53,008 nt of DNA, taken from positions 1-53,008 of IMG/VR virus record IMGVR_UViG_3300025151_000047; one strand, written 5' to 3'. The stretch's first letter is position 1. Every line of letters begins with the position of its first letter. Position numbers and translations under genes: made by a program. The notes under the pieces are model-generated. The model worked only from the letters and a program-made list of their open reading frames with translations. It did not search any database and had not been told where the DNA came from. This document shows positions 3,429-24,945 of the stretch, one piece after another. The stretch comes from a virus (Duplodnaviria; Caudoviricetes).

Positions 3429-3439
3429 AGTTGCTCCTT

Positions 3440-3565
3440 TCAGAGCTTTCCTCTAAAGAATAAAAAGACATGGTACGCAGCCACGCAGCTGCCAGCCTGA
3501 TCCCAATGAACCAGTTCCATGTGCCTATCAAACCAACAGAAAGTGCCATCCTTAGCTGAGATCAT
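3440..3565 (-). CDS. Small ORF absent from the track (41 aa, MISAKDGTFCWFDRHMELVHWDQ...)
   Basis: Same GAAAGGAG RBS as neighbours; stop overlaps the next RBS. Confidence 0.45.
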   Translation of the reverse strand: MISAKDGTFCWFDRHMELVHWDQAGSCVAAYHVFLFFRGKL

Positions 3566-3682
3566 CCTTGATCTCCTTTCACGATTGAAAGTAACCCCGT
3601 CCCCGTTAAGGGAGCAGAGTTACGCCTGTACCTCCGTTAGAGTAACATTACAAAACACAAGACAGACAGCAAAAACTCGAAC

Positions 3683-4021
3683 TTAGTCATTGAACACCAC
3701 ATCCCACTCAGCCGGAGTCCATCCGGTCTGAATAATTTCCCGGTGGTCCGCAGGCATGTCAGGCCACACCTGCTGGATCAGGGCACCTCCCCTCCACCGC
3801 TTCCATTCCTCAATGGATACATCGAAGCTGAACTCCTCACCCGTGACGCGGCAGGTTCGCTCGATCACGATGACGTTCTCACCAAGACGGGCATGGATCC
3901 TAGCTTTCTGTGGAGGAAGAGGGTCTGCATTCTTAAGGTCTTCCTGAAGCTGACCCTTGTTGATGATGGCCTGAAGGATGTCTTCGAGGTTGTCGTTGTA
4001 GAACTCTTCGTTCTGAATCAT
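3683..4021 (-). CDS. Early hypothetical protein (112 aa, start reassigned to MIQNEEF)
   Basis: GAAAGGAGCAACC-ATG. Confidence 0.8.
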   Translation of the reverse strand: MIQNEEFYNDNLEDILQAIINKGQLQEDLKNADPLPPQKARIHARLGENVIVIERTCRVTGEEFSFDVSIEEWKRWRGGALIQQVWPDMPADHREIIQTGWTPAEWDVVFND

Positions 4022-4050
4022 GGTTGCTCCTTTCAAGAGCGGGTGATAGA

Positions 4051-4093
4051 AAAGACAAAACAAGCCGACATCCCCGGTAGGGGATGGGCTTGT
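4051..4093 (-). terminator. Terminator-like hairpin
   Basis: ACAAGCC-CATCCCC-TACC-GGGGATG-TC-GGCTTGT followed by TTTGTCTTTT on the minus strand. Confidence 0.55.
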
Positions 4094-4102
4094 GAGTGTA
4101 AC

Positions 4103-4723
4103 TTAGCCATTCAACTTAGTGACGGGATAAGTCTTGCCTCCGGCCCACTGTGTCCGAAGATTGGAGTCATCCCAGAACCGACCGAAGTAGACACGGTGAG
4201 CATTACAAAGATCATACACAGCTTCAGTGATAGCCTCACAGGAAGCGGAAACATCATCATAACTGTCGCTATCTTCAGTAAACTTGTCAATCAGATCAGG
4301 ACTACTCCAAATAGCCAGCACACACTGCCACAGGTCATCACTCTTAGAACACCAGTAGCTATCAAGGCTACTAGGCTCAAGCATCATATCGTCCCACTTT
4401 ACAGCGAGGTCAGGATTCTTCCACAGCAGAACAGAACGACAAATGTCCAGCCAATCACCAAAGGTGATCTTCTTAAAGTCATACCGAAACCAATGCTTAC
4501 CAGCAATCTCGTCTCCTCGTCGAGTACTTTCGGACACCATCATACCCAGCGTCTTCTGCTTCAGGTAATGAGCAACACGGCTTTCCTCTGCTTGACGTGC
4601 AACCACGTCGTACACGTTCTCGGTCTCCACGACTGACTGAACGTTCTGAGACGCAGCCTTGCAGAGTGCACAAGCGAAGAAGGCGACAACAGCGAAAACG
4701 ACGATGAGGGTAAGAATAAACAT
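4103..4723 (-). CDS. Probable first early gene: 206-aa protein with N-terminal transmembrane helix
   Basis: GAAAGGAG RBS before MFILTLIVVFAVVAFFACALC; the track's longer start crosses a G/C-run non-coding segment. Confidence 0.75.
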   Translation of the reverse strand: MFILTLIVVFAVVAFFACALCKAASQNVQSVVETENVYDVVARQAEESRVAHYLKQKTLGMMVSESTRRGDEIAGKHWFRYDFKKITFGDWLDICRSVLLWKNPDLAVKWDDMMLEPSSLDSYWCSKSDDLWQCVLAIWSSPDLIDKFTEDSDSYDDVSASCEAITEAVYDLCNAHRVYFGRFWDDSNLRTQWAGGKTYPVTKLNG

Positions 4724-4809
4724 GGGTGGCTCCTTTCTAGAGCAAGGGGGGTAAGGGGGGAGCGAAACTCCGCTCCGCATTATCTCCCCCTCTGTAAATT
4801 CCTGACCCC

Positions 4810-5340
4810 CTAATCGATTTTCCACCCTGCCAAAAGAATCGTTAAGTCCTTACCGTCTACAACCGTGTCATCGTTAAGATCCCAAGGAGAGACTAACATG
4901 TAGTCCTGCTGGGGCCACGGAGCGTCAATTAACTTAGGTGGTCCCCAGTCACTTAAGAGTTCACTGAGGTCATCAGCGTTGAACTCTGTTTTAATAATAT
5001 AAAATTTAAAGTGCCGTGGAATCTCTATCGGATAGCTCTGCAAGTCCTCCCCCGTGAAAGGGTGGAGAGGCAACTGAGTGCGGCACCAGACGATCTCCAT
5101 AGTGTCCTCTTTGGTCTGCCACCAGTCGAAGGGCAATAAGCCACTGAGGCGGCCCTCAGGCAGCGTAAAGCAATACTGGAGGCAAGGGAACTTGGAATCT
5201 TCGGTAGCGTATAACCGAGCCGTACCTTCGTATACAGTACGTGGCCCCTGAATGTAGGTGTTATATTCAATAGACCATTCGTCAGTAGCGTCCCCCAAAG
5301 GGGCGGCCACAAGAGCGGCAGCGGTGAGGTAGATTAACAT
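4810..5340 (-). CDS. Putative exported protein with C-terminal dockerin/EF-hand-like motif
   Basis: Hydrophobic N-terminus MLIYLTAAALVAA; C-terminal DLNDDTVVDGKDLTILLAGW; GGAG RBS. Confidence 0.65.
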   Translation of the reverse strand: MLIYLTAAALVAAPLGDATDEWSIEYNTYIQGPRTVYEGTARLYATEDSKFPCLQYCFTLPEGRLSGLLPFDWWQTKEDTMEIVWCRTQLPLHPFTGEDLQSYPIEIPRHFKFYIIKTEFNADDLSELLSDWGPPKLIDAPWPQQDYMLVSPWDLNDDTVVDGKDLTILLAGWKID

Positions 5341-5375
5341 GTTGGACTCCCGAGAGCGGCATAGCCGCAGTTAAA

Positions 5376-5579
5376 TTATTTAATATTTTTCACAATAGAG
5401 TACTGCTTATCGTCAAGTTTCTGAAGCCGCGCTGAGATCTCACGGATGCGTCTATCGTGGGCTTCAATCTGTTTTTCGTGTAGGGATACTTTGCTAGTGA
5501 GCCGCCAGACGAGTCCAAAGACACCTAGTAGAGCGGGTCCAGCAATGCTAATAATAATAGTAATTAAGTGTTCTTCCAT
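5376..5579 (-). CDS. Small membrane protein (one TM plus coiled coil; holin-like?)
   Basis: Hydrophobic N-terminal segment, charged heptad tail. Confidence 0.65.
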   Translation of the reverse strand: MEEHLITIIISIAGPALLGVFGLVWRLTSKVSLHEKQIEAHDRRIREISARLQKLDDKQYSIVKNIK

Positions 5580-5642
5580 AGGTTTTCCCCCCAGAAATCT
5601 ATAGGTGTACTTAAATGTTAATAATAAAATCAGATAATATAA

Positions 5643-5682
5643 TGTAAGGGGTCTATAGAAAGAAATCTATAGACCCCCTACA
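5643..5682. repeat. Inverted repeat after the giant gene
   Basis: GGGGTCTATAGA-AAGAAA-TCTATAGACCCC, perfect 12 bp, extends to 17 bp with one mismatch. Confidence 0.8.
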
Positions 5683-5700
5683 CCGTCATCTCTTCTCTTG

Positions 5701-8700
5701 TTATAAGATGGGTTTTTTCATACCCCCTATTAGAGAGTCTCTTAGAAGGGATCCTAAGTTTTCGTATTCAGACATGTCTGGTCTATTTAATTCTTCTTTT
5801 AATGCTGGGATTAAATCAGGATCTCTCATAGAGTCTCTAGGTTGTGACTGTCTTGGTTCGACTGTCCCTTGTCTTGGTCCGGGTGCCTCCCTAACAGGTT
5901 TACTAACTTTAATGTTTTCCATAGGTTTGTATCCAGTCTTAAAGGGATCAAATAAAGGCATTCCAGAGTTTTTCAACATATCGTTTGATACTCTTAATCC
6001 AATAGGAACAATAGCAAAGAACGGAAGGGGGACCATTGAAGCAACATTAGCTGCACCAGTTAAAGCTTCTCCTTGATTGATCTTAGCGAAAGCGTTAGTG
6101 ACTCTAGTGGGTAACTGTAACATACGGTTAACCATAGCAATACCCGCCATGCTGTAGATCTGAGTGTTGGACGGACGCTGACCACGGAGAACCTGTAAGA
6201 GGGTGGCGATGACCATCTGGTTCATACCGAAGAACGGAACGGACATCATGGCATCCTGAATCTCAGACATAGGATCTCTCTTTGCTTTCTCTACCATATC
6301 CTCATAGGAAGTAGACATCTGAAGCTGGATGAGTTTATAATATAAATAACCGGAAAGTGCGTGACCCATAAAAGCTGCCGCAAATGCAGCCATACCGCCC
6401 AGACCAGCTCTATGCATACCGCTGTATACCGTAGAGGAGTAGGTATTAAGGGCCGTAGCTATGGGAGCCAGAGGACCAAGTGCTCTAGCTCCGACAGCAG
6501 GAGCTTCAGATACTGAGGGCTGTTTTGCGTATCTTGTTGCGCCTAACCATAAGATTTCTCTAAGGGCGTTGATTACTTGAATTCTTTGTGCTCTTTCTTT
6601 TGCGTTAGAATTATAATCAAAAGATGTTTCAGAAACCATTTTATCAAACGGCAATCCCTTTTGTTTAATATCATCACCGTAATCATAAAACAGCTTTTGA
6701 ACCACGGGAGCAAGCTCTCTACTGAATAAACCATTCTTAAGCATATCAATAACAACAGTAATTAAATCACTATCCATGTTATAATTACTCTTGAGTTTTA
6801 CTCTAAGTTCTTTCAGAGAAAGCTCATTTACATTCATATCTTGGAATGCTTCAGCCAATTCGTTAAACGTAGGTAAGATTGGTCCTCTAGGAGATCCCGG
6901 TATTAAATTACCTTCATCGTCAATTAAACTAACACCTTTGGACATTCTATAGAATAACCTATTAATATCCTGTGTGGTTTTTCTTGCGCCAATCTGACGG
7001 TTGAGGTTAACCTGAGAATTAAGACCCTTAGACGTAAAGGCGTAAATTCCTTTAGTTAGACCTTCAAATCCCTTATCAAACCTAGATTGATCTAATTTTC
7101 TACCGTCTTCCATACCAATTTTCTGAAGAACAACATTGACTTCTCTTGTCAAATCTTGGGTTATAAGCCCAAGACCTTCTAAGAATGCGTTTTTGTCTTG
7201 CTTACTTTTAAGTAAACCTACACCCTCTTGAATTCTATTATTAGCAGCTTGAAGGTTTGCTTTAAACGAACCAGCTAATGCCATAGGAGTTTCTTCCAAG
7301 AGAGAGGCAAAAGCAAGTCTTGGTCCAATAGCCAAAGCAGACCCTAACTGACCAATATGGTTAAGCATGTTAATGAACGGGATCGAACTAGCATCTTTAT
7401 CGTCCCACTTTAACGTACCCGTACTGTACCTATAAGCACTTTTAATGGCGTTAAAGGCGTGGGTAAACTTGTTCTTCTCTTCGGGCTTAAGACCTCTTTT
7501 TTCACCCATCTGTTTCATAAGCGGATCAAGCATGATATCCTCAAATTGATTGTTTTCAACTAACTGATCAATAGTATCAATCAGATCTGAAATACCAACC
7601 CCACGAATACCAAAAGCGTTTCCGAAGACTTGCCTATCAAATGCTTGAGCTGCCTGCCCCCTCATAAGAGAACCAAATATTTCGGCGGGATCTAAATTAA
7701 GGTGCTTTTTAATAAGAGGGTTCTGAAGCATATCCATGGTATTAAAGAACTTCTCTCCTACAAAGGTATACGTAGAAGAACCGGCTCTCATCATGTAATC
7801 TTCAGCAACAAGATTAGCTAACTTCTCGTCCATTCCTTGCGTGTACGTTCTCTTTTGAGCTTCCTTTGTTTTCTTAAGTCTATCATTTCGTAATTCCATA
7901 ATAGCTTCTTTTTGTTTTTCTGAGAGTGGTCTATCACCTCTAATATGATCGTTGTATACGTCACGTTCAGGTTCCGTAAGCAGATCATCTTTTTTAAGTT
8001 TACCTTTTTTAATATCTCTCATGAAAGAATTAAAGGCAGTGTTAGTATCACCTTTTTTCTGTAAGTACTCATTGTAGATACTAGACGCTGGTCCCATATC
8101 GATGCTAGACGGGGATTTAGTTGCATCGTCTCTCTCAAAGTAATCAGCAAAAATAACCTTAAATAAATCTGCATCAATGAATTCACTGTTAATTAATTCG
8201 TCAGTGATCTGATCACCGATAGCATTTCTCAACTCTTCTCTGGCTTGAATACCGTTTTTGCCATCGTTTCTAAAAACATCGTCTGAGAATTTTACAGGAA
8301 TAACACCTTCAGTAATTAACCTATCTCCCAACGTGGCATCAAATACTCCGCTATCTACCTGAGCGGTAATAATTTGTTTCCAAATACCCCTTTCAGGATG
8401 CGCCCACATTTCAACTAAATCAACAACCTTTTCAATGTTGGTTTCCTGTTCAGCTAAAGTCTTTTCGTCAAGAGTTTGCCCTGCTTTTCTAAAAGCAAGT
8501 TTCATGATTTCTTGTGCTCTATTTTTAGCGGCTTCCCTTCCTTGCCATCCTTTGATTTCGTTAGAGTACTGAGTTTCAGAAACCTTTTCTCTCATAGCCG
8601 TTGAAGCCCAGAACATATCGATGAATAAATCATAGGGAGTATAATCCTCAGTTCCTGTTTTCATTCCCGGCGTAAAGTTACTAAGTTTAATCTCTAAAAG

Positions 8701-11700
8701 ACCATTCATTAATGGTTCAAATATACCCTTTAACTGCAAGCCTAATCCCTGCATGGTAGGCAAGTTGGAACCAAATGCACTGGATGATACTAAGAGTTTA
8801 GTGTCAGTAGCTTGTAATAACATTAAGATTGTAGACGGAAGTCCGTTTTCTTTGTTTGCCATAAACGCGAACTTCTTAAGACCGAAGGGCTGTGCAAGGT
8901 TATGCATCAGTTTTTCTGTCTTTTCTCTACTAATTAAACCACCAGATAAATTACTCATAAGAGTAAAGACAGGGCTATCTACCAGAGTACCTGAAGATGT
9001 TTGCTCTCTCTTAGAGTCTAAGAATCTGTCAATAGCTTTTCGTCTCAAGTCATCGTTTTTAATTTCAAAGGCGTTAAACATACCTTCTTCGTCCGTATGC
9101 TCTCTAATAACATCGTCAAGCCTATGGATATCTGTTTTAAATGCTTCAGGAATATCAGGACGTTTTGGGCCTTCGTTGTTAAAGAATGAATCAGGGCCAT
9201 CAAAGTTATCGAACATTCCACTAACTTCGTCTTGGTCCAACGCATTAACATGAGATTGTTTACGTAAACCCGTCTCAGCCATTAATCCCATACCCTCGGA
9301 ACCAATGAATGTCTTGAAGTTTTTATCGACAAAACTCTTGTATCGGTTATATTTTTCAATATAATGAGAAGCGTTATCAATACCCTCAGCGATGGTTTTA
9401 TTGTCTTTAATTTTCAGCACAAAAGAATTAACATCGTTTCCAAATAGAGCCGAAAGGGCAAACAAGACACCAAACAATTCGTTGTTTACTGAAGGATCAT
9501 ACTCAGGTGAATCAATCCCTAAGTTTTTCTTAAACTCAGATATTCTAGAATCATAAGAGTTTCTTTCATTAGGTTTACCAAAAATCTTTTGCTCTAATTC
9601 GACAAACTTATCGAAGCCCTCTTTATTCTTAAGGAGATCTCTGGCAACAGTCATGTAATCTCTCATGCTTTCTTTGTCGAGTTTGCTGCCAACAATGTGT
9701 CCAATCTCTTCTAAGATAATACCAACAGCACCGAACTCACTGATACCCTCAAAAGATTCTGCAAGATCTTTAGCCACTCTAATTCTTGCTGCAACAACCT
9801 CAGCTCTACCACCCGCTTTTACTTCAGGATCAACAACAACATCTAACGGTTTCGAGTCTCCGAATAGATCCTTTAAAAGAACGTGATTAGCTCTGTCGTT
9901 AAATACGGCCTTTAACAGTAAGTGATCGTTTTTGTTAATAGTTTCCGTAGCAAGAAGTTCGTTTATAACCGTTAAGAAGTTTTGGTGATAAAAACCATTT
10001 TGAGCAAACTTGTCGTTATTAAACACTTCGTCAATAGTATTCGATCCACTGAAGGGTTCATTGCTGTCGGTTCTAGGTTTAATAGAATTAATTTCTAACT
10101 CAGTTTGATTAGCTGCCATTGGAACAGTAGGGTTACTGGTATTTTCGTTCACATCTTTTATTGAGTCAGCAACAGCAAAATCAGCAGTAATCTGCAACGG
10201 ATCTTCCATAATATCGTTTTGATGTCTAATGTTATCAGGGTTATATACAGCTTTATCGTTCTGTTGTTTTAATACGTTTTCTCTAAGCAAAGCAATAACG
10301 GGTAAAATATTATCCCTAAAGTCATCATACATTTCTCGGTAAGTAACGTTTTTCTGACCACGAAGGTTTTTTCTAAGCGTTTCCAGTCGTTTGAAAATAT
10401 TGAATAACCCTTCTTCTTTACCGATAAACGGAACTAAAGACATAGCCCTACTGAATGCTTCCTTATCTACCGAACGAATAGTATCCAAGGCATTAGAGTC
10501 TTCAATACTAAGGTCGCTTAAGATTTCATTAGCATTGATTTCATTTGCAATTGAGTAAGCTTGGCGGATAGACGCATCGTCGTAAACCAAGAATTCAGCA
10601 TCCATAGCTTTCGTACCAATAAACATTGTGTTTCTATTATCAACCTGAGTATTGGCTTTATTTTTAGTCAATCGTTTAATTGCTTGAGTTTGGATCATAG
10701 CATTCTGTCTAACTTCTTGGATAGAAGACCCCTTAGAGCTAAACGGATCGTAACCACCGATAGCATTAGGAAGAGATTTTTCGTAAGGAATATCAATTCC
10801 CATGCTATGAGCAAAAGTAATAGTATCCATTAATTTTTTGTTTACAATAGAGTTAATTGCCATAAGTTTTTCAACAGGTAATAACTTAACTCTAACTCTA
10901 CCTAAGACATAATGAGGAGAGACTGGTTCACCAAACTGGTTAATAAATACATTATCTTTCTTGGAAATAATAGTCTTTTCAGATCTTGTCTTGAGGAGGC
11001 TTTCAATAGTCATTCCTTCCTCAACGCGACCTAACACTCTATCGATATTTGGGAACATCTTCTTCATATCCTGAGCAACAGCTTCTGTCACAGGAATATT
11101 TCTAAGAGATTCGTTCAAGATATGCCGGTTACTATAACCTCTTACAGCTTCATTAGTACCTCTATCAAGTAAGTTTTGGATTGTTTTAGTTTCAGTTTCA
11201 TCTAAAGTTCTAACAAAGTCTTCCATTCCAAAAACATCGGAAGCATCTAACGATTCACCTTGAAGTTTCTTATCGTAGTATTTAGTAAACACCCCAATAT
11301 GCTGACTCGTAATCTCATAGTCCTTACCCATAATTTTACTAATAGCATATCTCTTAGCTGAATTCATGGCGTATAAAGACAGGTAGAGTGCCGGAGAGTC
11401 ACCACCAGAGAAGGCAACCAGAGCATTCATTGCTCTATTGGGATCCTGACCCCTTGCGCTAACAGCAGAGAATCGTCCTTCAGAAGTTAAGATTTCCCCT
11501 AAGAACTCCGCATCACCAGAAAGCCAAGCTAATAAGTTACCTGCTTCAACGTCGTTATTGATAATCATATTTTGAATGGCTTCCTCAATTGTACCAGTCC
11601 CAAACGATACAGGAATTGAAGAAATAGTATCAGCTTCAAGGCTGTACAAATCAGTTACTCTATTTTTAGCATCAAAGCCCCACTGGGTAAGTGCTCTGAC

Positions 11701-14700
11701 AGTCATCTCCTGATCTAAGACAGAGTTATCAACCATGGCATCCAGAGAGTTCTGAGCTAAAATGTAGTTAGTGTTTTCTAATACTAATGTGTTAATCTGG
11801 CTATCAGATAACGATGGTTTTTCTTTCTTAATAGCTGAGAAAATACTATCGTACAAAGACTGGACCTTTTCGGCTTCTAATCGAATCTGTAACTGACTTC
11901 TTTCCGATTCTCGGAGTCCGTTTAAAGAGTAGTAAGCTAAGAGAATCTTATCGTAGTTACCCTTATCTCTGAATTCGTTCAGTTGCTTATTATTAACCGT
12001 TTGTACGAAGTTATCAAGTTCGCTTCGTAAAAGCTCAGATACTTTTTCAATAGTCGGTTGTTTATCTAAGTTAGCAGCAAAAGAATTAAAGATATTAAAC
12101 GGCATTGTTTTCTGTAGTCTCAAGGGCTTAATATCATCTAAGGCTTCAGGAAGTGTATTAGGGTAAGCTAACTCTTCGTCACTAAATGGGCGTTCAGGAT
12201 TTACTCCAGTTAAACCCTTTCTAGTTGTTTGAAGTCTTTCTAATCTAGCTGCTGACGGAGATCTCAATAACTGGGACATCCTAACAATACCCGAAGGGAC
12301 ACCTTCAAAGTTTTCTAAATAAGTTTTAGGCAAGAACCCTAAAGCACTAGGCAGAGAGGTAACTTGAGACGTAGTGTCGTTTCCAGTGATCTCTTCCATG
12401 ATACCAGCTATCTCAGGAGATCTATTTTCTCCCGTAGAATCAATCATCTTAGAAATCATTTTAATTAAGACATCGTACTGTTCTTTATCACCTTCGTTAA
12501 GATTACCTCTATTCTTAGCTCTTTGTAATCTATCTAACTGGGTAATAGCCGCATCTCTAAGTTCAGCAGAATCTCTACTATCCGTTTCCCACTGCTTGAA
12601 GAAATCGTACATGGTAGAAGTCTCAAACTTGTTTCCGCCGATTTCAGGTAAGTCACTTCCGTCAGTAAACTCAGCTGCTTTTATAGCAAGTTCTAAGACC
12701 GTAAGTTTTTCAATTACTTCTCCAATATCTCCAACAATAGGATCATTTCTTTGTTCGACTACGCTATATACCTCACCGTCTCTAAATCTTTTTTCACTGG
12801 TGGGAGTGAAATTAGACGGACTGTACCTTCTACCGTGGTCAGATCCTGCGGCGTTGAAGAAGAAGTCGTTCTCAAATCCTCTTCTAGCGACTGGATTCAA
12901 TCTGTTTAGGACTGTGCTAATAACTTCTTCTCCAACGTTACCGAACATACCTCTCATAGTATCTTCAAATGATGATTCTTTTAATCTGTAAGCTTGTCGC
13001 GCATAGCTGTTTAAGGCATCAACTTTAATATTACGTGCTTCCTCAAAGGTAACAAGAGTGGAATATCTTGAGTAAGCTTCAGTAAAGTCTCCAGTTTCCT
13101 TAGCCTTTTCTAAAAGCTCTTTTAACTGTTCATCTGATTCAATTCTTTCAAGCGTAGTTTCAATGACACCGGAAAGACCCTTAATAGCGTCTTTTTCGTT
13201 TTCGTAGAATTTGTTTTCAACTAAATGCCGTGAAACACCTAAAGTTTTTCTAATAAGCTCACTGAATGAAGAATTTTGTTCTCTGTTGGATGCAGTTGTT
13301 CTACCAATAATTGTATCAAAGTCATCGGTTTCATCAAAGGTACTTCTAACAGCGTTACCAATAGGAATATTACTTTCTTGAGTAAGTTTAAATCTATTGA
13401 ATAAGTCCCTAAGTTTTTCATTGGTAATCTTATTTCCGCCTCTATTTGGGAAAAGAGTTTCTTTCACCCAGCCATTTTCAACGGTAACTCCATTCTCGTT
13501 AAACAGGTTGCCTAACAAATCGGAAGCTGCTATAGCAATTCTTGTATAAGAAGTATCATCAATAATCCCACTGTTAATGATCTTTTCTTTGTTTTCAGGG
13601 ACATTAAAGAACTTATTGTAAATATTATTACCCATAGTTCCTGCACCTGCGTTATACAAGTCAGTCATAGTGGGAGACTTAAATATTTCTTTTAAGGCCA
13701 TATCTAGATCGTCAGCTTGAGTAAAGATTTTTCTAATAGCCTCTAATGCCAAGACATAATCTTCACCCATAGCTTCAACTGCTTTGGTTAAAGTACCGCT
13801 AGGGGTTCTTTCTTCTGCTGTTCTCTTTACACGTTCGTAAATAGTTTCATAGTTTTCAGTAATGAATCTAGATAATCCCTCTTCTCCTTCAGCTTCTCGG
13901 ACTAAATCTCTAAAGAATTGTCTGATTGCTCCGGCACCTTCGATACCTTGGACCATACCAATCATAACATTACCACCAGAAGCATCTGCATCAAGTTCCT
14001 CGACTTGTTTTTTAAAGAGTGTTTTCTGTATACGTTCTCTAACCTCAGGTTGTACTTCGTCAATTCCTCCTCCAAAGAAGAAGGTAACAAAATCATAACC
14101 TGTTTCTTTTTCAAATTTAGAATCGTATAATTTCCTAGCCGCGTCGAAGACACCTCTGTAGCCGTAGGTTATCTCTGCTGCTGCCAACATACCAGATTGA
14201 ATTGTACCACCTCTAGCAAATCCAACAGGGAAACCAAACCCAAGACCATCAAGGGGTCTAATAGTACCACTTTCAGTAGTCACTTCGGGATTAAAGTGAC
14301 CTGCGTCTCCGACTACTAAACTGGAATACATGGGGAACAACGCATCATGAACAGCCGTCATAAAAGCTGGATCAGTAGCAAGGAAATGCTGTTTGTTTAA
14401 GTCAATTGCTCGTTGAATACTGTTAGGCACTTCGCTGGTTAATGACTGGTAGGCTTGAGTGGGGAGAATCAGTAGGCCAGTATCCCTTGATTTATTGGGA
14501 ATAGCATCCTCTTTGATTTTAAACTTAGTTAACCACTCCCTTAATGCTTTAATATCAACACCAGTATTATCTAATTCTGCCTTAAGAATAAAATCAATCT
14601 TACGGTTTAAGTCAAACTCATCGTACATAGAAGCGATAACGGAATCAGACCGCTGTTGGATCTTGCTTTCTCTGCGCTCACCAATATCTACTTTACGCTC

Positions 14701-17700
14701 TAACTTTCCGGTTTTACCCATAACAGCTGTTCTGTTGTTAACTCTGCTTGTGTTTTCTTTCTGGGTAGTTAAAGCGTCGATAACAGCACGGGCTGCTCTT
14801 ACGGGATGTAATAAATCAATCACACCACCTAAGTCCGAAAACTCTTTAATCTTTTTACCAGAGGGTAAAACTGAGTTAAAGTCTTTCAAAAGATTAGTTA
14901 CAATCAAACCGTCAGTAACATTATCGGTTTCAATATTGTTATTTGTTTTCGCTAATCTGGTGATCTTTGTATTGAAGTGGGATTCCCATTCTTCCTTGGT
15001 AATTGGGTTACCATCTTCATCGACATAAGAGTCTTCTCCGTTTGCTTTCCTCCACTCTTCCGCCCTTGTTCTATTAGCTTCGATAATATCTTCAACAAAG
15101 TCAATATTATTTCTAATGCTTCCTTCTCCTTCAAAGAGACCAGTACCATCAATCTTACGATCAAAGATTCTGTTGTAGGTAGCGTCGATACTCTTCATGA
15201 AAGCAGGAGCCTGACCCGGATCAGCCATAGCAAGTTTTTCTCTAATGGAATCTAATACAATATCTCCGTCGTATACTTTTTGTTCTCCTCCTGATTTTGT
15301 ATCAATCAGTCTCATTATCTCAAAACCTGAGTTAGATCCAGCGATTAAACCAAGAAGATCTTCTCTAGAAATTTCATTTGTAAAGTTATAACCTTCTGAA
15401 ATAGACCCAGCCACGTTCTTACCGTTTTGTCGATTAGCTGCAATGTAGTTAGATACATTCATCAGCAGACTCATGAGTGGTTTAACGTGACCAACGGGAG
15501 GTCTTATTTCTACAGAAATTCTTTCAGATTCTAATCTAATCTTGTTGTTTAGAATATCTTTGGTACGTCTTCTAACAGTTTGTTCGATACCATCTCCCAT
15601 TTCCTTCAGGAGGTTAGCAATTTCTTCAAGTTCTTTATTAATCGTAGTCAGTTCTTCTGTTGCAGGTTGTGACTTCTTTCTCCTAGCGATCTCTGCTCGA
15701 AGATCATCGGCTTCTGCGAACAACCTAACGGGTTTAGCTTCTAGTTTTTTATTACCTCCTACCTCAACTTGTGTCACCAGAATTGCAGCACCTTCGTCAT
15801 TGGCTCGACCAGTGCCGTTTTCAATTTCATTCAGCGCATTTTCTAATCGCTCAGTAGGTACGTCTTTCAGATTTGTTTCGGCATTGCCGCCCTTATAACT
15901 TTGTACAGATCCAACAGGCATTTCGTCCTTTGGAGTCATTTTCGCTTCTCTGGTTTCAACTTCACCAAGTTTGCCTGCCGCCTCGTTGAATTCAGCTTCT
16001 AGCTCATCAACATTTTGGCCTCTTTTTTCTGCTTGTTTTCTTGCCTTGTCAGACAATGTAGGTCTTCTCTGGTCTTGGGAACCTTTTCTAAGTGTTTCCC
16101 TCTTAGCTAAAAGCTCTTCTTGTTTAAGCTTAAACTCGTTATACTTATCGTCTTTATCTTTTGCAGTTTTAATTTGTCGTTTTATTAACGCTTCTTCTTG
16201 TGATTCCACTCCCTCTTTAATCAGTTTTTCAATAATCTGCATTTCTTCTGATTTAAAGTAAACACTAGAATCTAAAAGAGACACGGCTTTGTTGTAATTG
16301 TCTGTATCTTGCTGCGTAGGGTCTTTCATTCTTTCGGAAATAGCTGAAGCTAATTCACTCGCGCTCATCTTACTTCGTCCCTTAATTTCTAAGGATGCCG
16401 CAAGATTGTTCAGGACGTTTTTACCGAGTCCTAATTCCTGAACGTCTCCCTTTGCAATTTTATCTCTTACATCTTTGACCTTATGTAAAGCCTCTTCAAA
16501 CTGCTTCTTTTTGTTTTGTCCGTCCTCAAGATTAGAAATAACATCTGCAATATTGAGCTTATCACCATCATCTTTAAGTGCAGTCTTAATATCACCAAGT
16601 TTCATAACTTCAGCGGAATCGAAGGCAGAAAGGAACGCTTCTTCGGGATCTAATCCTTTTTCGATAAGCTGATGGTACATAGTCTCATACAGTTCTGCGT
16701 CTTTAGCTTGGATAACGTTTAAAAAGTTATCATTGACAAAGTTTTTAATTTTTTCCATGTCCTCAAGACTGATACGATCTGTACTGTAATTCTTAATTTT
16801 ACGAAGAAGAGTATCCATGTCTTCGCTGATGTTTGTCATACTGAGTAAACGATTAATGAGATCTTCATCCATACCAAGCACACCCATAATGCTTGCAAAA
16901 CTGGGAGCATCCGCTTCTTTATCAAAGGTCAAATCTTCAACAATTTTATTTCTAAGTCTTTTACGGAAATCAGAAATATCTTCAATTAAAAAGTCATCTT
17001 CAGCCTTTATTCTTCTACCTACAAGAATCGCATGATTATAGACATTATCTTCGTGCGCGGATTTCTGTTCATTTTGGGTTTTAGTCAGCGATTCTAACTT
17101 ACTTTTTTCTTTAGTAATTTGATCTCTTAATTCTTTTTTCTTGTTCTTATCAGTAGTGTTTTTTAATTGCTCTTCTAGATTCTTAACGGTAGATTTAACT
17201 TTACTGATTTGTTCAGTTGTTTTATCTAATGCGTCTTGACTTTCGTTACTTGCTTGGGATGCCTGCTCCTCTTGGGTTCTAAGATTGGTAAAATCTTCTC
17301 GACTACGAATAGTTTCAGAGCTAGAAGGCTCTACTCCGTTCACAGTTGCGTCAGCAATTTGTTGCCTTCTTTCGATGGGGTCTACCTTTTTTATAGCACT
17401 TTCCGCAAGTCTTACGTTTAATTCCTTAGCCTTAAATTCCTTATTTCTTGCAATCAAATCATCCTTAAGGCCATCTGTAAGTCGTTTAAGAAACTCATCT
17501 ACCGAAATAGACTCATCATCTTTAATACTATTAGCAATTCTTTTTGCAGTTTTTCTAATAGTAAGACCTGATTGGTTAGCAGTAGAGGCTATTTCGTGGA
17601 TTTCGGTTTCAAGCCTATCGAGGTTACCTTCAATCTTTGAATTATCGTCACCAACATCTAATTTAGTGAAAACATAGTTTACAGACATCCTAGCATCAGC

Positions 17701-19744: not shown

Positions 19745-22700
19745 TTAGGTGTCACTAATGAATTTACTCATAGTATAATATGGGTTAAGTTTCATATTGC
19801 GGTTCATTCGGTTGAGTACTTCTTTTATATTTTCTTTTTCTTGAGCACTATATAATAAAGGTATCATATCTAAGTTATACATCCAATTAGCTGGCTCAAA
19901 GACTTTATCGCTAAAGTTTCTATTAGAATTTCTTAAAATATTTTCTTTAATTTGTAAAAAATATTTCTCATCTAACATATACTCTTGTTCTTGACCAAAC
20001 CCCAAACCTTCTCCGAAATTAGTTTCAATAGTTGTATCGAGACCTGTACCTAAGACAGCTGCGAATAACTTTGGAATTCCTTTGGTATCAGTGGCATCGG
20101 TATAATCCAACATGTTTTTAATGAATTTTGATGTTTTCACTTCTGGGTTAGGTAACTGAGACATTTGCTGTAATTGTATATAAAAAGCAATACCTTGGTT
20201 GAGACCTAATTCCGAAATACCGTATTCGTAACTGTCTTGGTCCCCTTTTTTAGCATGTGATAAGCCTCTCTTTAATCCATTATGGTTTACTAGTCTTCTT
20301 AAAACCTCCATCCAATCACCTGAAACTCCTTGAAGCTGTTTAAACTGACTATTTAAAAGTTTAAAAGTATCGTAAGGAACAATGGTTTCACTCTGAGAAA
20401 CAATCTCAGCTTGGGCTAAAGGATCATTAATTTCTAATTCACTTTCAATACGAGATAAAAATTCACCTTGCTCAGTAAAAGGATTAAACTCAAAGGGGCT
20501 ACTAAATCCGTCTGCTACGGGATCTTTAGAAGCAGGCATAACCTTAACGCTATATGTAAAGAATCTACCATCATATAACTCATCTTTTTCTTCCATATAA
20601 GCAGTAAGACCCGGTTTACTATCGTCTTCGTTATCGACTTCTACAATAGATACGACAACTCTTTTACCTGCGGTATTTAAACTCTGTGTTAAAAGAGCAT
20701 CAGCTGAAAATTCTGATGTTCTTTTACCTTCTGCTTCAAGAGTAGCCAACATAGACCTATATAATTCTCCTGTTTCCATGGAAAAGTTGAAAACTTGAGG
20801 GTCATCTAAACCAACTCTAGTCATTTCAGCCATAAGCTCTTCAGTGGCTACCCTACCTTTTTCTCTATTTTTAATAATTTCTTCTTCGTTTGATCTAGGT
20901 AATCCAGTTACACGATCCATGTTTAATACATCGTTAACATCGTTTCCTATATTTGAATTTTCAAATACAATTCTTCTATCAAATATTGCTCTTGATGGTA
21001 TTTGAGTATCTTCAAAAATTAAACCTTGGTAACCTTGAATTACTCTAGCATAGTTATTTATATCTTCTGGTCTATTTCCGAGTAAAGCTACGCTATTTGC
21101 TAATGCAAAATTCCTAATATCGATAACACGATCAGGGGTAGCTTCAAACGCCCCAGCGTTACGTGGCCTAGAAGATTTAAAATTACTAGCTGGTATACCT
21201 AAAATAGATGCCAGTAAATCACTAGATTTTTCAACAGTTTCTTCAGGTAAAAATGAGATACCATTTCCACTGACTAAACCAAAAATAGGAGCAACTTTCG
21301 TTAAGTTACTTTGCATCCAGTTATTAAGCTCCCCTTGTCCTTGTGTTTTAGCTTGTTCAATTTCCTCTATTAAACCGTTCATTCTTTTATTTAATTCTTG
21401 TTGAACTCCTTTAGGGAAATCTAAAGAGTACCCGTGAATTTGTCTTTTTTCTTTATAAGATTCCATAAAAGAAGAAAGGTAGGGGACAACCTTTTCGTTA
21501 TCGTCGCTAAACTTAAATACGCCATCACTGTAGCTAAAAATACCACCACTTTCAAAAGCTACCTTATTACCTAATCTTTGCATAGAGTCTTCAAAAGAAT
21601 TCACAAATCCGACGTACCTCTGGTCTCCTTCAAATATCTCGCTGTTACCTTTTCTTTCAAGTATTTCTGCAATGTTTTTAAATTTCATAAGAGCGTTCAC
21701 ATCTTCGTCTTCTATAATTGCTTCAATACCTTTAAAAGCCATATCATTTAAATACGGTAAATTAGCTCGTCTAAAATCTTCTAAAATAGTACTATTTACG
21801 GATCTTGAAATATTGTTAAAAGCTTCTTCACCTAATGACATGGCAGCATAAGATAAATGATCCATAGCCTCTGAAGAGGATTGATAATCGTTTACTGTAA
21901 CTCCGTTACTTAAAGCAGAAACCGTAGAACTTGTAGCAGTTGCTTGTTCTGTAAATCTCTGAGGAGTAGGAATATCAATACCTTCATTAACCATTTTTCT
22001 AGCTATTTGAGTATAAGCTTCAAAATCGTCATCGAAGAGAGATTCATCAATACTATCTCTGAGAGACATATATTTCTCTGCGTCTGGGAACATAAGTTCC
22101 ATAGGCATAGGAGACTGAGGATATTTCCCCATTCCTACACCAGATGTAGCTTCTTGATACTCGAAATCGTAAGCAGCAATGCGGAAATCCAGCATATTAT
22201 CTATAATAGATTTTTGGTTATCTCCGTACTGGGAGCTGTAAAGATTATCTATAATTGTTCTAGTTGTATATATTCTTTCGTCTTCTCTATTAGCCTCAGG
22301 AGGAGGAGAACTCGGTACAGTCACAGGGTTTACTGGCCCAGTTGTCATTTCGGCTTGCCGTGCCGCTTGTAAAAGCTGTCCGGTTCTTTGGTTACTACCA
22401 AAGAACAACTCAAAGTCTTGTCTGTACAGACCGGAATAAGCCCTCATTGCCATAGCATAAGCAGCTCTATCTCCTTCCGATCCCTCACCCAGAATCGTTG
22501 AAAGATATTCAGGTTCTTCTTGGACTTTCTTAACAAACGGTTGCAGTTCTTCTGGGAATCTCAAAACATTGTATCTACTCAATAATCGAGTATTAGTAAT
22601 AGCTGAGTCTCGATCGATAATTGAAGGAACCTGTTTAACGCCATTATAAAGGTAGGTAAACATGCCTGCTTGACCAGCGGGAGAAAGACTAAGAGCCTCA

Positions 22701-23707
22701 CCCATAGCTTGTAAATCTTCATCTACTGATGAAGTATATTTAGACATTTTATGAATATTTGCTGTTCGATTCAGTTGCCCATTTACTAAAAGTGTAGAAG
22801 CGTTTCGACCTCTGGCTAAACGATTTTGAATTGTAGTCTGAGCAGCATAAAAAGAGCTAACCTTTTGATCGACTGCTTCCATAATACCGGGGTTATCTAA
22901 TACGTTTCTAGGATCAATACCAGCTTCTGAAAGGCTAGTCTCTAAAAAGTTTCTAATAGTATTATTGAACGCTGTTGCACCCAGACCAACCCTACCAGCA
23001 CCTTCGCTATTTAGAATAACATCTAATTGAGTATTAGTAATATCGTATAATCTGTTAAACTGTTCCTTAAGATCGTTTGAGATCTGACCCTGCAACCAAC
23101 GATCACCCGAAGTTTTTAACTGTGGGTTAGCACTAGTAAAATCTTTAGTTGCCGCCTCAAGAAAATCTTGCCTACTGAGACCTTCTCCTTCTGAAACGAT
23201 GGGATAGTTATTCGATTCTCTGAGAGTTTTAGAAGCCCAACTAGTAAACTTAAGATCGTCTGTAATTCCATTTAATTCTTGTAATGCCTGAGTTCGTTGA
23301 TTATGAGCTGCAACCTGAGACGTTTTAGTCAGGGGTTTAAACTCAGCATATGCTTGATCAATCATACGAAGCTTAGACTGGTAATCGATATTGTCTTTCT
23401 GAAGAATATTACCAACTAATAGTTGGACATCTTGCATTCTTTCTCTATCTACTCTATCTCTGATTCTTCTTCCTTCTTCTACTAATCCAGTAATTGGACG
23501 TAAGGTAGCGAGAAGATCAGAAGCGATATTACTCTGTGGGGCAAAGGCAGTTCTTGCGTTCGCTCCGAATTGAATACCACCGAGCTGGGGCATAGAAAGC
23601 ATTTCAGCTTCTTTGTAAACAGTAGGAGTACGCCTTTCTAATCTATCTAACTGACCGGGAATTCTTCCCGACATTTGAACCATATCGTTTTTAGTTACTT
23701 TAGGCAT
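19745..23707 (-). CDS. Putative internal virion protein (gp15 position), 1320 aa
   Basis: AGGAGG RBS; position; N-terminal Pro/Gln segment followed by helical-looking sequence. Confidence 0.6.
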   Translation of the reverse strand: MPKVTKNDMVQMSGRIPGQLDRLERRTPTVYKEAEMLSMPQLGGIQFGANARTAFAPQSNIASDLLATLRPITGLVEEGRRIRDRVDRERMQDVQLLVGNILQKDNIDYQSKLRMIDQAYAEFKPLTKTSQVAAHNQRTQALQELNGITDDLKFTSWASKTLRESNNYPIVSEGEGLSRQDFLEAATKDFTSANPQLKTSGDRWLQGQISNDLKEQFNRLYDITNTQLDVILNSEGAGRVGLGATAFNNTIRNFLETSLSEAGIDPRNVLDNPGIMEAVDQKVSSFYAAQTTIQNRLARGRNASTLLVNGQLNRTANIHKMSKYTSSVDEDLQAMGEALSLSPAGQAGMFTYLYNGVKQVPSIIDRDSAITNTRLLSRYNVLRFPEELQPFVKKVQEEPEYLSTILGEGSEGDRAAYAMAMRAYSGLYRQDFELFFGSNQRTGQLLQAARQAEMTTGPVNPVTVPSSPPPEANREDERIYTTRTIIDNLYSSQYGDNQKSIIDNMLDFRIAAYDFEYQEATSGVGMGKYPQSPMPMELMFPDAEKYMSLRDSIDESLFDDDFEAYTQIARKMVNEGIDIPTPQRFTEQATATSSTVSALSNGVTVNDYQSSSEAMDHLSYAAMSLGEEAFNNISRSVNSTILEDFRRANLPYLNDMAFKGIEAIIEDEDVNALMKFKNIAEILERKGNSEIFEGDQRYVGFVNSFEDSMQRLGNKVAFESGGIFSYSDGVFKFSDDNEKVVPYLSSFMESYKEKRQIHGYSLDFPKGVQQELNKRMNGLIEEIEQAKTQGQGELNNWMQSNLTKVAPIFGLVSGNGISFLPEETVEKSSDLLASILGIPASNFKSSRPRNAGAFEATPDRVIDIRNFALANSVALLGNRPEDINNYARVIQGYQGLIFEDTQIPSRAIFDRRIVFENSNIGNDVNDVLNMDRVTGLPRSNEEEIIKNREKGRVATEELMAEMTRVGLDDPQVFNFSMETGELYRSMLATLEAEGKRTSEFSADALLTQSLNTAGKRVVVSIVEVDNEDDSKPGLTAYMEEKDELYDGRFFTYSVKVMPASKDPVADGFSSPFEFNPFTEQGEFLSRIESELEINDPLAQAEIVSQSETIVPYDTFKLLNSQFKQLQGVSGDWMEVLRRLVNHNGLKRGLSHAKKGDQDSYEYGISELGLNQGIAFYIQLQQMSQLPNPEVKTSKFIKNMLDYTDATDTKGIPKLFAAVLGTGLDTTIETNFGEGLGFGQEQEYMLDEKYFLQIKENILRNSNRNFSDKVFEPANWMYNLDMIPLLYSAQEKENIKEVLNRMNRNMKLNPYYTMSKFISDT

Positions 23708-24452
23708 ATGATCCTCCTACTGCAAGTGTATCGTCTTGTCCCCCACCCAAGAATGAAGTAGAGTATATAGTGCTTGATGTATTCTGAGACCCGACTACAG
23801 GTGGTGATGAAGGGTTTTGAGTAGGAGTTGAACCGACAAGTCCACCGATTGCTCCCCCAAGACCTACGCCAGACATAACACCGCTGAGTCCGCCCATGAG
23901 ACCAGCCATAAGCATATTAGGTTGGGCAGGAGGCATTCCCGGAAGATAAGCATCCGCTTGTACCATAGTATCATCAATCTGATTCATATTATTTCTATAC
24001 TGATTTTCCATAGATTTCTTTTCATCTAAGGTATTAAAGAATTCGTTTTCCCAATTCTTAGCACCTTTCATTTCCATTTGCTTTTGAATAGCTTCAGCAG
24101 TACCTGAGGATAACCCTATTTTGTTAGACAGCATAGCGTTAGTAGTAGCTTTCTGCAATCTATGGTTCTCTGCCATAGCTTCTCTTCTGCCTTCGACATT
24201 CTTTTGTAAAGCAATTTGCTGTTCTGCGTAGTTTCTAGACAGTTGTTCAGCAATAAGAGAATTTTGAATTCGTTTCATGGCGTTCGCGTTAACAACACCA
24301 AAAAGTTGTTTTCCAGCAGCCCACGATTCTTTGAGTGTTCTATCATTATAAGCGGCTACTTCGGCGTTATATTGAGACTCTGCTTCGCTCATGCCACCGA
24401 AAACACCAAGCGCACCGCCTATAACGGCACCGCCAACTGCAAAATAAGGCAT
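23700..24452 (-). CDS. Putative internal virion protein (gp14-like ejection protein)
   Basis: Gly/Ala-rich hydrophobic ends flanking a Gln/Asn/Ala-rich coiled coil. Confidence 0.65.
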   Translation of the reverse strand: MPYFAVGGAVIGGALGVFGGMSEAESQYNAEVAAYNDRTLKESWAAGKQLFGVVNANAMKRIQNSLIAEQLSRNYAEQQIALQKNVEGRREAMAENHRLQKATTNAMLSNKIGLSSGTAEAIQKQMEMKGAKNWENEFFNTLDEKKSMENQYRNNMNQIDDTMVQADAYLPGMPPAQPNMLMAGLMGGLSGVMSGVGLGGAIGGLVGSTPTQNPSSPPVVGSQNTSSTIYSTSFLGGGQDDTLAVGGSYA

Positions 24453-24453
24453 A

Positions 24454-24945
24454 TTATTTCTCCATAAAAGAAAGTATTTTATCTAAGTTATTATCTATAT
24501 CCTCAGTATAAACGTGCAAGATAGGGTAATTAGCTTCTTGTAATGCTTTAGTAAGACACCACCTAGACCAATCTATGATATCTGTAGGTGGATTAAAAGG
24601 GGATTCAAATTTAACTAATTCCTGTTCTTTTTTAAAAATTCTGTTAACACTCTCTAATTGGCGATTTTTATCTTTTCTCTCCAAGATAACTAGTCTGTCA
24701 ATGTTATAGACTGGGGTTTTTAACAACACGGCAGGCCACACCTTTACACACATACCTTTCCAGATATGATCAGCGCAGCCTTTTTCAACAACAAGAGGGT
24801 CAACTTCCCAAAAACCATCGGGGTTTTCTTCTTTGGGAGTAAAATATAAAAACTTTTTACCAGCAATAGGTAATCCGTTTTTACGTAAAAAATTCATAGT
24901 AAAGGATGAACCAACTCTGGGTCCAATTCCTGTTACAACTTTCAT
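24454..24945 (-). CDS. Sulfotransferase-family (P-loop) protein
   Basis: VVTGIGPRVGSSFTMNFL resembles the 5'-PAPS-binding loop; downstream NPDGFWE. Confidence 0.6.
   Translation of the reverse strand: MKVVTGIGPRVGSSFTMNFLRKNGLPIAGKKFLYFTPKEENPDGFWEVDPLVVEKGCADHIWKGMCVKVWPAVLLKTPVYNIDRLVILERKDKNRQLESVNRIFKKEQELVKFESPFNPPTDIIDWSRWCLTKALQEANYPILHVYTEDIDNNLDKILSFMEK

Follow-up and report, generated by a model that had tools for sequence, protein, structure and literature searches.

A marine T7-like phage may encode a second, perhaps ejected, polymerase of unusual build within a giant late protein

Does the largest gene of this marine T7-like phage encode an RNA polymerase and, if so, which residues would make up its active site? 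The window analysed here, i.e., the whole 53,008-nucleotide stretch of IMG/VR record IMGVR_UViG_3300025151_000047, contains a giant gene on the minus strand (P0001, 5701..19725) with an ORF of 4674 aa. The original prediction had recognised four single-subunit RNA polymerase motifs in its product, in the scrambled order C-A-B-T/DxxGR. Translation places positions 12781-14427 at aa 1767-2315, and each of the four motif strings was found there, exactly at the residues named. The patterns HD[AS], D...SG, [KR]...K.......Y and GR.[YF] occur once each in the protein, all within aa 1767-2315, and the T7 and N4 reference residues, contexts included, were checked against the actual sequences. The family is conserved at full length (4298-4728 aa) across marine viral contigs.

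Pfam, PHROGs and PDB phmmer searches with the whole giant protein were all empty, and its bulk has no domain recognisable as an enzyme by Pfam or PHROGs. Pfam at E <= 1 returned only noise for segments of the protein and for the 1320-, 2297- and 734-aa neighbours. The best PDB match of the family profile was an unrelated kinase (E 2.8), a tblastn search with aa 1500-2600 through 50,697 phage records gave zero matches, and none of the 19 members listed for the protein's cluster carries a functional name.

The family profile of aa 1880-2130 was compared by hhalign with a profile of 19 single-subunit RNA polymerase sequences and matched T7 563-684 (Prob 78%, E 1.9e-5), with motif B in exact register; against nine N4-like sequences it gave E 1.9e-4. 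The fingers subdomain (aa 1955-2092; 13450..13863, minus strand) is homologous to T7 RNAP 563-690. Its motif B (aa 2012-2025; 13651..13692, minus strand) reads [KR]-x3-K2016-x-P-x-M2020-T-x-x-Y2024, with the counterparts R627, K631, M635 and Y639 in T7 and R666, K670 and Y678 in N4. The motif B windows scored 35.2 and 29.7, compared with a maximum of 14.0 among 423 control scores. In two relatives, PF00940 matches this part of the giant ORF (E 2.2e-5 and 2.8e-5) at 17.9 bits, which is under the 22-bit gathering cut-off; by hmmscan it was found in one of nine members (E 3.4e-4) and not in the other eight, and a Pfam search of P0001 itself gave no PF00940 match. When the confident part of the fold model was compared with 48,161 PDB chains using VIA, T7 RNAP (3e2e_A, Z 10.0) and human mtRNAP (9mn4_E, Z 8.9) ranked first and second and the N4 mini-vRNAP fourth (Z 5.2); a Z of 10 on a helical subdomain is, by the tool's own note, not decisive alone. 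In a language-model search, the ten best family-assigned matches belonged to one shared family or clan, and the neighbours listed all had PF00940 or N4 vRNAP domains (score 0.88-0.90); aa 2200-2900 gave no usable match. The profile comparison, PF00940 in the relatives, the fold comparison and the language-model features agree on the single-subunit descent that had been proposed for this region. We conclude that the fingers with motif B are truly homologous to single-subunit RNA polymerases.

Ahead of the fingers lies a motif A-like D-A-D-x-S-G (aa 1912-1917; 13975..13992, minus strand), in which D1912, A1913, D1914 and G1917 are invariant. In a narrow window, D1912 was placed on T7 D537, the best match being T7 536-559 and weak at E 0.54, and with a score of 10.4 the window stays inside the range of its controls (mean 7.6, max 12.1). 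D-x-x-x-S-G is present only once in the protein, is invariant, and stands 104 aa ahead of K2016 (predicted: about 100 aa), where some 95-110 aa is expected for a T7-type motif A. Downstream of the fingers, a helix matching T7 780-803, just before motif C in T7 order (the pre-C helix; aa 2762-2790; 11356..11442, minus strand; S2777 invariant), scored 19.6, above its own controls (mean 6.4, sd 1.5, max 9.9) and above 14.0, the maximum of all 423 control scores. The T7 780-790-type motif had been placed at aa 1767-1775; that stretch, the first half of the predicted motif C, is not conserved in homologues, and aa 2762-2790 is the stronger match. When the profiles were compared without gaps in a dot plot, the five best diagonals included four in T7 order (1956/564, 2016/631, 2179/694 and 2768/780); over the whole matrix, motif B alone rose above the column-shuffle null (22.4 vs a maximum of 20.0). 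As far as the sequence can be read, motif A, the fingers with motif B and the pre-C helix follow the T7 order. The last collinear fingers match (aa 2179-2199) is separated from the pre-C helix (aa 2768-2788) by about 570 residues, compared with about 66 in T7.

Conservation was examined in 15 distinct homologues with a pairwise identity over aa 1500-2600 of 18% at minimum and 25% at median. H1793, D1794, D1912, A1913, D1914, G1917, K2016, P2018, M2020, Y2024 and R2299 are invariant in all 15, and the invariant positions cluster in the four motifs. The expectation that the motif residues would be conserved was borne out for six of the eight residues named, against a background of 33 invariant positions in 1101 (hypergeometric P 1.2e-8); of the other two, K2012 alternates with R and shifts slightly, and G2298 is replaced by N or T in some homologues. 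Between aa 1400 and 2700, the only invariant aspartates are D1794, D1912, D1914 and D2685. The spacings in the giant protein are 118 aa from 1794 to 1912, 104 aa from 1912 to 2016 and 275 aa from 2024 to 2299.

The two remaining motifs are out of order. The block P-A-x-M-x-T-[IV]-H-D-A (aa 1786-1796; 14338..14370, minus strand), with P1786, A1787, H1793 and D1794 invariant in the 15 homologues, puts an HD pair N-terminal of motif A; judged by its sequence, it is a candidate for a relocated motif C or for a helix near the active site, and the hydrophobic spacing around HD is also compatible with a helix. The proposal that this HD is motif C holds as far as its invariance goes, but not in the profile alignments, where the HD window fits best to T7 816-836 and N4 425-449 and gives nothing above background against T7 HD812 or N4 D951 (N4_C window 10.1). 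An HD-domain phosphohydrolase was ruled out, as the upstream region has no further invariant H or D. The T/DxxGR-like S-x-x-[GNT]-R2299-x-[YF] (aa 2291-2301; 12823..12855, minus strand) lies C-terminal of motif B, and its best alignment is to the T motif in exact register in both profiles (T7 424-432, and GR on GR in N4); its score against the T7 T window, 14.1 with GR on GR, equals the best control there (14.0).

A canonical alignment through other residues was sought and none was found for motif C or T/DxxGR. After the pre-C helix, the T7 HD strand pairs with a segment that has no acidic pair, by an indel-rich loop without HD, and the profile windows placed at D2685, D2993 and 2795-2835 failed to align with motif C. 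Against both profiles, aa 2030-2700 matched nothing (E 0.72 and 0.83). No GR is present in the homologue alignment at the 112-135 aa upstream of motif A where T/DxxGR is expected; the stretch between HD and motif A offers just two conserved features, one Gly-rich and the other a near-invariant A-R-x-G-[ST], with no profile match to the T motif. With no canonical motif C hairpin in its expected place, any active catalytic centre must draw on invariant residues that stand out of order.

On balance, we lean towards the reading that aa ~1780-2800 is a highly diverged T7/N4-type polymerase module with a displaced motif C hairpin, serving early transcription from the virion. The module at the centre of the giant protein would have descended from T7/N4-type single-subunit RNA polymerases. 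The likeliest stand-in for motif C may be the HD pair that precedes motif A by 118 aa, giving a C-before-A layout; the second aspartate of D-A-D may also contribute to the centre, and the GR located 275 aa beyond motif B may represent T/DxxGR in a displaced position. The protein would be packaged and then ejected along with the DNA. Like N4 gp50, it may transcribe the genome end that enters first, or assist its uptake, at a time when the phage has yet to make its own canonical T7-type RNAP. What we infer for this protein thus covers its palm topology and catalysis as well as its packaging, ejection and timing. AlphaFold models from alignments of 9 and then 15 sequences reached a mean pLDDT of 48.5 and 52.3 and a pTM of 0.28 and 0.30, respectively; the fingers (aa 1955-2092) were modelled at pLDDT 72-89, whereas the HD, DAD and GR sites were below 45 in both models and the palm had no confident geometry. 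Foldseek with both whole models against the PDB gave nothing at E <= 0.001, a result of little weight because both models are of low confidence.

A stricter form of this reading, which we regard as possible but doubtful, takes HD1793-4 as motif C itself and S-x-x-G-R2299 as T/DxxGR, so that one right-hand active site is built in the order C-A-B-T. The invariance of all four motif cores, the register of the GR window on the T motif in the T7 and N4 profiles and the empty canonical site of motif C all fit this arrangement. In the RdRps of Birnaviridae the motif order is C-A-B. These right-hand polymerases, with permuted palm motifs and an altered palm topology as described in PMC4634563, provide a precedent; they are RNA-dependent and unrelated in sequence, and the likeness is in principle only. 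However, HD aligns with T7 HD812 or N4 D951 no better than background, the GR score equals the best control, GR falls within the ~570 aa that separate the pre-C helix from the collinear fingers matches, and the palm is at low confidence in both AlphaFold models. The order C-A-B-T is, moreover, not a circular permutation, and therefore at least two rearrangements are needed. That the palm is internally permuted, with the catalytic HD hairpin shifted ahead of motif A and perhaps T/DxxGR to a place beyond the fingers, the first such case in the Pol A/T7-type superfamily, and that the enzyme is active and delivered in the virion by a T7-like phage with its own canonical RNAP, can be put forward only tentatively. 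If true, an N4-style two-polymerase programme would have evolved independently in the T7 lineage.

It is also conceivable, but improbable in our view, that the layout is collinear with that of N4 and that HD and GR resemble T7 motifs by coincidence. Here aa 1778-1802 would be the helix after the N4 T/DxxGR (N4 mini 425-449), D1912/D1914 would be motif A, and an acidic residue at 2296/2297, beside G-R, would be a degenerate motif C. The hhalign match of aa 1778-1802 to N4 mini 425-449 (E 0.15), its window score of 14.6, above all 423 controls, and the N4 spacings (E441-D559 118, D559-K670 111 and Y678-D951 273, compared with 118, 104 and, to 2297, 273 in the family) agree with this layout, as does the D or E found at 2296 or 2297 in 14 of 15 sequences. 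However, the GR window is off register on both motif C windows (9.0 and 6.1), the acidic residue shifts position and is missing in P0006, and motif C leaves the invariant R2299 unexplained. No GR precedes aa 1778, and the pre-C match, which is much stronger, comes 460 aa after the supposed motif C, again a non-canonical order.

Another explanation sees in the module the remnant of a polymerase that has lost its catalytic activity; its fingers and nucleic-acid-binding residues would grip or thread DNA during ejection instead of making RNA. It is suggested by the missing canonical motif C, by a phage lineage that already has a complete RNAP and DNAP, and by the lack of a recognisable enzyme domain in most of the giant protein. 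Against it, both motif A aspartates are invariant at a median identity of 25%, and so are K and Y in motif B. Motif B K and Y contact the NTP in T7 RNAP, and such strict invariance of motif A and B residues is hard to explain without nucleotide chemistry, so we consider a dead relic unlikely. Chance motif matches in a non-polymerase structural protein, for which one could cite the absence of Pfam, PHROG or PDB sequence matches to P0001 at default thresholds, are exceedingly improbable in view of the fingers/motif B homology by profile-profile comparison, Pfam HMM in relatives, fold and language-model features and of the motif residues invariant in homologues.

The genome is that of a T7-like phage, as predicted: portal, scaffold, capsid, tubular A, nozzle and a T7-type terminase are all present. 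The giant gene is in a late-operon position downstream of the terminase. Three upstream genes (163 aa, 250 aa and 1320 aa; 19745..24945, minus strand) are kept with it, and the block of 163-, ~250- and ~1300-1500-aa genes plus the giant gene is conserved in five IMG/VR relative loci, with no 163-aa ORF within the stretch covered in L004 and L005. The 250-aa neighbour showed a faint match to phrog_805 'internal virion protein' in two of five members (E 0.09-0.1). The giant protein had been assigned to the gp16 position. T7 gp16 is likewise the last and largest gene in a short late block of rising size, and the hydrophobic C-terminal region of the giant protein is a further point of resemblance; the block here, however, follows the terminase, and hhalign of all four proteins of the block against T7 gp13-16 detected no similarity beyond short stretches (best E 0.046-0.09). 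The assignment to the gp16 position is thus one of order and size only, because the gene is not between nozzle and fibre. Neither a tRNA nor a promoter-like repeat family was seen in scans of the window.

The complete relatives G002 (99%) and G004 (100%) encode a canonical T7-type RNAP of 848 and 859 aa, respectively, with D421, R425, D537, R627, K631, Y639, H811 and D812 all intact, a point that had been missed originally. Both also carry a PolA DNA polymerase. The giant protein is therefore a second polymerase-like protein in these relatives, as in N4; for the present phage, a canonical RNAP is deduced from the relatives because the window (77% complete) does not include that gene. Origin by recent duplication of the canonical RNAP was ruled out by the 15% identity over the aligned fingers, and a DNA polymerase or replicase by the relatives' own PolA and by a motif B with T7's Met/Tyr pattern.

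N4-like, crAss-like and P23-45-like phages are known to deliver giant RNA polymerases from the virion, and T7-like phages are the textbook case of reliance on the host RNAP for entry and early genes. To our knowledge, no giant virion-delivered RNA polymerase has been described for T7-like phages. A giant protein family with a T7-type core, in phages that also have a canonical T7 RNAP, suggests that the 'bring your own polymerase' strategy arose a second time, independently. A missing canonical motif C together with out-of-place invariant HD and GR makes the family a natural test case for the rewiring of a Pol A-type active site; we know of rewired polymerase active sites only in RNA-dependent polymerases. 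These questions are directly testable on a recombinant fragment of ~1000 residues. A literature search of openly accessible full texts returned no permuted T7-type polymerase and no RNAP-like giant protein in T7-like phages.

Among known systems, the fingers fold and motif B are common to the giant protein and to the T7 RNAP family (PF00940) and mitochondrial RNAP, and its D-x-x-x-S-G, H-D pair and G-R-x-Y read like T7's own motifs. It differs from that family in the order of HD and GR and in being embedded in a 4674-aa protein, with the canonical enzyme encoded separately in the complete relatives. N4 gp50 (Schitoviridae) is similarly a giant protein in which a T7-type polymerase module occupies the centre, flanked on both sides by long terminal regions, and its motif B aligns in register. 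Each lineage has a separate T7-like RNAP for later genes, a role documented for the N4 enzyme in PMC4496689 and PMC13492108. The N4-like vRNAPs for which PMC10654107 gives lengths span 2842-3820 aa, compared with 4298-4728 aa in the present family, and the ExDGxxxG motif used there to define N4 vRNAPs contrasts with D-A-D-x-S-G. Motif C and T/DxxGR are not at the N4 positions, and the virion module is T7-like, not N4-like. Whereas N4 gp50 is a virion polymerase, packaging of the giant protein is a supposition from gene position and analogy. The N4 vRNAP Pfam domains PF21867, PF21894 and PF21624 had no match in nine members at E <= 1; clusters with N4 vRNAP domains are among the language-model neighbours, which is a lead only. 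Two other very large virion proteins, gp66 of crAss-like phi14:2 (bioRxiv 10.1101/2020.03.07.982082) and the tape-measure-fused RNAP of Thermus phage P23-45 (PMC10770324), are described as carrying the RNAP for the earliest genes; they are kin of the cellular multisubunit (two-barrel) RNAPs and not of the T7-fold enzymes.

Two further parts of the giant protein stand out. A separate conserved module at aa 3338-3416 (9478..9714, minus strand), in which Pfam gave no match, combines an invariant L-E-E-x-G-H (3338-3343) with an invariant E3416 and is a putative zincin-like metal site. The C-terminal region at aa ~4400-4600 (5926..6528, minus strand) is charge-poor and hydrophobic by composition and hydropathy, with K+E+R+D+Q at 0.18 vs ~0.3 elsewhere and a hydropathy maximum at 4564-4571.

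The four motif strings behind the original prediction were all matched at positions 12781–14427, corresponding to aa 1767–2315 of the 4674-aa giant protein. The patterns HD[AS], D...SG, [KR]...K.......Y and GR.[YF] each occur once in the 4674 residues, all within this segment. An exhaustive phmmer search using aa 1500–2600 against 1.84 billion representatives revealed eight proteins, every one of them giant (3299–4707 aa). Word-indexed searches added one relative, and scans of IMG/VR and of metagenomes gave five loci each; the 19 listed cluster members all lack a functional name. After removal of near-duplicates, 15 distinct sequences with a median pairwise identity of 25% were aligned. Invariant in all 15 are P1786, A1787, H1793 and D1794 (the HD block), D1912, A1913, D1914 and G1917 (the motif A-like block), K2016, P2018, M2020 and Y2024 (motif B), and R2299. 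Six of the eight key residues predicted earlier are invariant, versus a background of 33/1101 (P = 1.2e-8). The first half of the first motif (aa 1767–1775) is not conserved. The only invariant Asp residues within aa 1400–2700 of this alignment are D1794, D1912, D1914 and D2685.

Sequence searches of Pfam, PHROG and PDB gave no match for the giant protein of the window. Four independent lines of evidence concur that its fingers/motif B part is a single-subunit RNA polymerase homologue. In two relatives, PF00940 matched the giant ORF at the same place (profile positions 117–187, E = 2.2e-5 and 2.8e-5), with a score of 17.9 bits, under the 22-bit cut-off, and hmmscan found it in one of nine members (E = 3.4e-4). 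Reference profiles comprised 19 T7-type RNAPs and 9 N4-like vRNAP fragments, with the T7 and N4 reference residues verified on fetched sequences. With these, hhalign aligned family aa 1880–2130 with T7 563–684 (Prob 78%, E = 1.9e-5), placing K2016, M2020 and Y2024 onto T7 K631, M635 and Y639, and the same region matched N4 motif B (E = 1.9e-4). In the second AlphaFold model, aa ~1960–2090 is the sole confident part (pLDDT 72–89). An all-against-all structural comparison with 48,161 PDB representatives ranked T7 RNAP first (3e2e_A, Z 10.0, rmsd 3.0, 105 residues, T7 569–690), followed by human mitochondrial RNAP (Z 8.9), an unrelated protein (Z 5.4) and N4 mini-vRNAP (Z 5.2), with residue ranges that match the hhalign alignment. 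The language-model neighbours of aa 1740–2340, among those listed, all carry PF00940 or N4 vRNAP domains (score 0.88–0.90), a lead-level result. As counter-evidence, a Foldseek search with both whole low-confidence AlphaFold models found nothing.

To assess motif order, 44-aa windows of the family were scored against the T7 and N4 motif regions; 47 windows elsewhere in the family alignment served as controls and gave 423 scores (mean 7.3, sd 1.9, maximum 14.0). The motif B window scored 35.2 and 29.7 against T7 and N4 motif B, respectively, far over the controls. The aa 2755–2800 window scored 19.6 against T7 770–802, the helix before motif C (controls for this target: mean 6.4, maximum 9.9), and one clade has P, V, H, S, D and S positions in common with T7 780–789. 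The HD window matched T7 816–836, the helix after motif C (16.2; HD812 not matched), and N4 425–449 (14.6). The GR window (G2298/R2299) scored 14.1 against the T7 T motif, with GR on GR and a best control of 14.0 for this target, and 12.0 against the N4 T motif; the motif A window, with D1912 on D537, gave 10.4, inside the background. In an ungapped profile dot plot, four of the five best diagonals follow the T7 order (family/T7 1956/564, 2016/631, 2179/694 and 2768/780), the fifth (1784/816) is out of order, and motif B alone beats the whole-matrix shuffle null. Between the fingers matches and the pre-C helix lie approximately 570 residues. No motif C was found after this helix, where the T7 HD strand falls on a segment without an acidic pair beside an indel-rich loop, or in the D2685 and D2993 windows. 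The core, i.e., motif A, fingers/motif B and the pre-C helix, thus follows the T7 order. It lacks the canonical motif C hairpin, and the invariant HD and GR lie outside their canonical places. HD is a candidate relocated motif C and GR a candidate relocated T/DxxGR motif. With 9 and 15 sequences, AlphaFold gave mean pLDDT values of 48.5 and 52.3, and in both models each of the three palm sites was below 45.

The family has motif spacings nearly identical to those of N4 (118/104/273 versus 118/111/273, from E441, D559, K670, Y678 and D951), which could also be read as a layout collinear with N4, in which the HD region, placed by hhalign (aa 1778–1802, E = 0.15), is the helix after the N4 T motif, and residues 2296–2297, D or E at one of them in 14 of the 15 sequences, are motif C. 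However, this layout leaves the invariant R2299 without explanation, receives no support from the motif C windows and would put motif C 460 aa ahead of the pre-C helix; we consider it improbable.

The window record is linear (53,008 bases, estimated completeness 77%), with all long genes on the minus strand. It encodes a T7-type virion module, comprising the portal (PF12236), scaffold, capsid, tubular protein A and a 1501-aa nozzle (41274–45779, minus strand, PF25675), and a T7-type large terminase with 37–43% identity to those of T7-like phages of Pelagibacter, Roseobacter, Limnohabitans and enterobacteria, which supports the proposed T7-like phage. Downstream of the terminase are genes of 163, 250, 1320 and 4674 aa, the giant gene (5701–19725, minus strand) being last. 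The block of ~250-aa, 1373–1524-aa and giant genes is kept in all five IMG/VR relative loci, and the 163-aa gene is present in three of them (L001, L002 and L003). The neighbour genes have no significant similarity to T7 gp13–16; one of them faintly matches a PHROG for an 'internal virion protein' (E ~0.1, two of five members).

Two complete relatives (68.1 and 72.9 kb, completeness 99% and 100%) both encode a PolA DNA polymerase and a canonical T7-type RNAP (848 and 859 aa, PF00940 E = 2.5e-73 and 1.4e-65) with D421, R425, D537, R627, K631, Y639, H811 and D812 all present. This makes the giant protein a second polymerase-like protein. N4 is known for the same arrangement, in which a virion RNAP is accompanied by a T7-like RNAP II (PMC4496689, PMC13492108). 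A 19.6-kb IMG/VR locus, L036, encodes an 848-aa canonical RNAP and shares its source with L001 (49.6 kb), the closest relative of the window; L036 may be the missing part of the L001 genome.

We propose an internal virion location for the giant protein, followed by ejection into the cell. The module at its centre would be an active template-dependent RNA polymerase whose rebuilt catalytic centre, in a putative palm, would comprise D1912/D1914 and, most likely, D1794, and it would work on the entering DNA ahead of the availability of the canonical RNAP. Taken as a whole, this mechanism has, in our judgement, slightly better than even chances. The analysis directly shows homology, conservation, the collinear core, the lack of motif C and the genomic context, and from these we infer the palm fold, catalysis, packaging and timing. 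With its presumed catalysis and packaging, the giant protein would resemble N4 gp50 in its mode of working. However, it falls outside the N4 gp50 group: N4-specific domains were not found in nine family members, motif A differs, N4-like vRNAPs are smaller (PMC10654107), and the virion is T7-like, not N4-like. The polymerase module descends from T7-type polymerases, but differs from them in three defining features, namely the positions of motif C and T/DxxGR and a score under the Pfam threshold. Among the RdRps of Birnaviridae, a permuted palm is on record (PMC4634563). Searches of the openly accessible literature turned up no comparable T7-type enzyme, nor any giant RNAP-like protein from a T7-like phage.

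Several other features of the genome were observed. The match of the nozzle to the T7 nozzle family is confined to residues 1013–1497, leaving ~1000 N-terminal residues without explanation. Directly after the nozzle gene, at the place of T7 gp13–16, are genes for proteins of 2297 and 734 aa (32179–39072 and 39082–41286, respectively, minus strand). The 734-aa protein gave short PHROG/Pfam matches of tail-fibre and collagen-like type; the 2297-aa protein gave no match of any kind. Both are probably fibres or adhesins, not core proteins. After the giant gene, positions 1–5700 contain ~20 small minus-strand ORFs, with no PHROG match for those searched, and GC climbs to 0.47–0.49 at 2–6 kb (0.35–0.40 in the giant gene).

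Within the giant protein, an L-E-E-x-G-H block and a Glu 73 residues on are both invariant (9478–9714, minus strand, aa 3338–3416). This region has no Pfam match. Its residue pattern resembles an HExxH...E zincin site in which Glu takes the place of the first His, and it could represent a metalloenzyme module active in self-processing or on the cell wall. A K/E/R/D/Q-rich stretch (15526–17925, minus strand, aa 600–1400, fraction 0.37–0.43) is poorly conserved (identity to query 0.02–0.25) and looks like a long coiled-coil or spacer from the N-terminal domain to the polymerase module. The N-terminal domain itself (aa 190–600) is conserved, with many invariant G, D, P and E residues.
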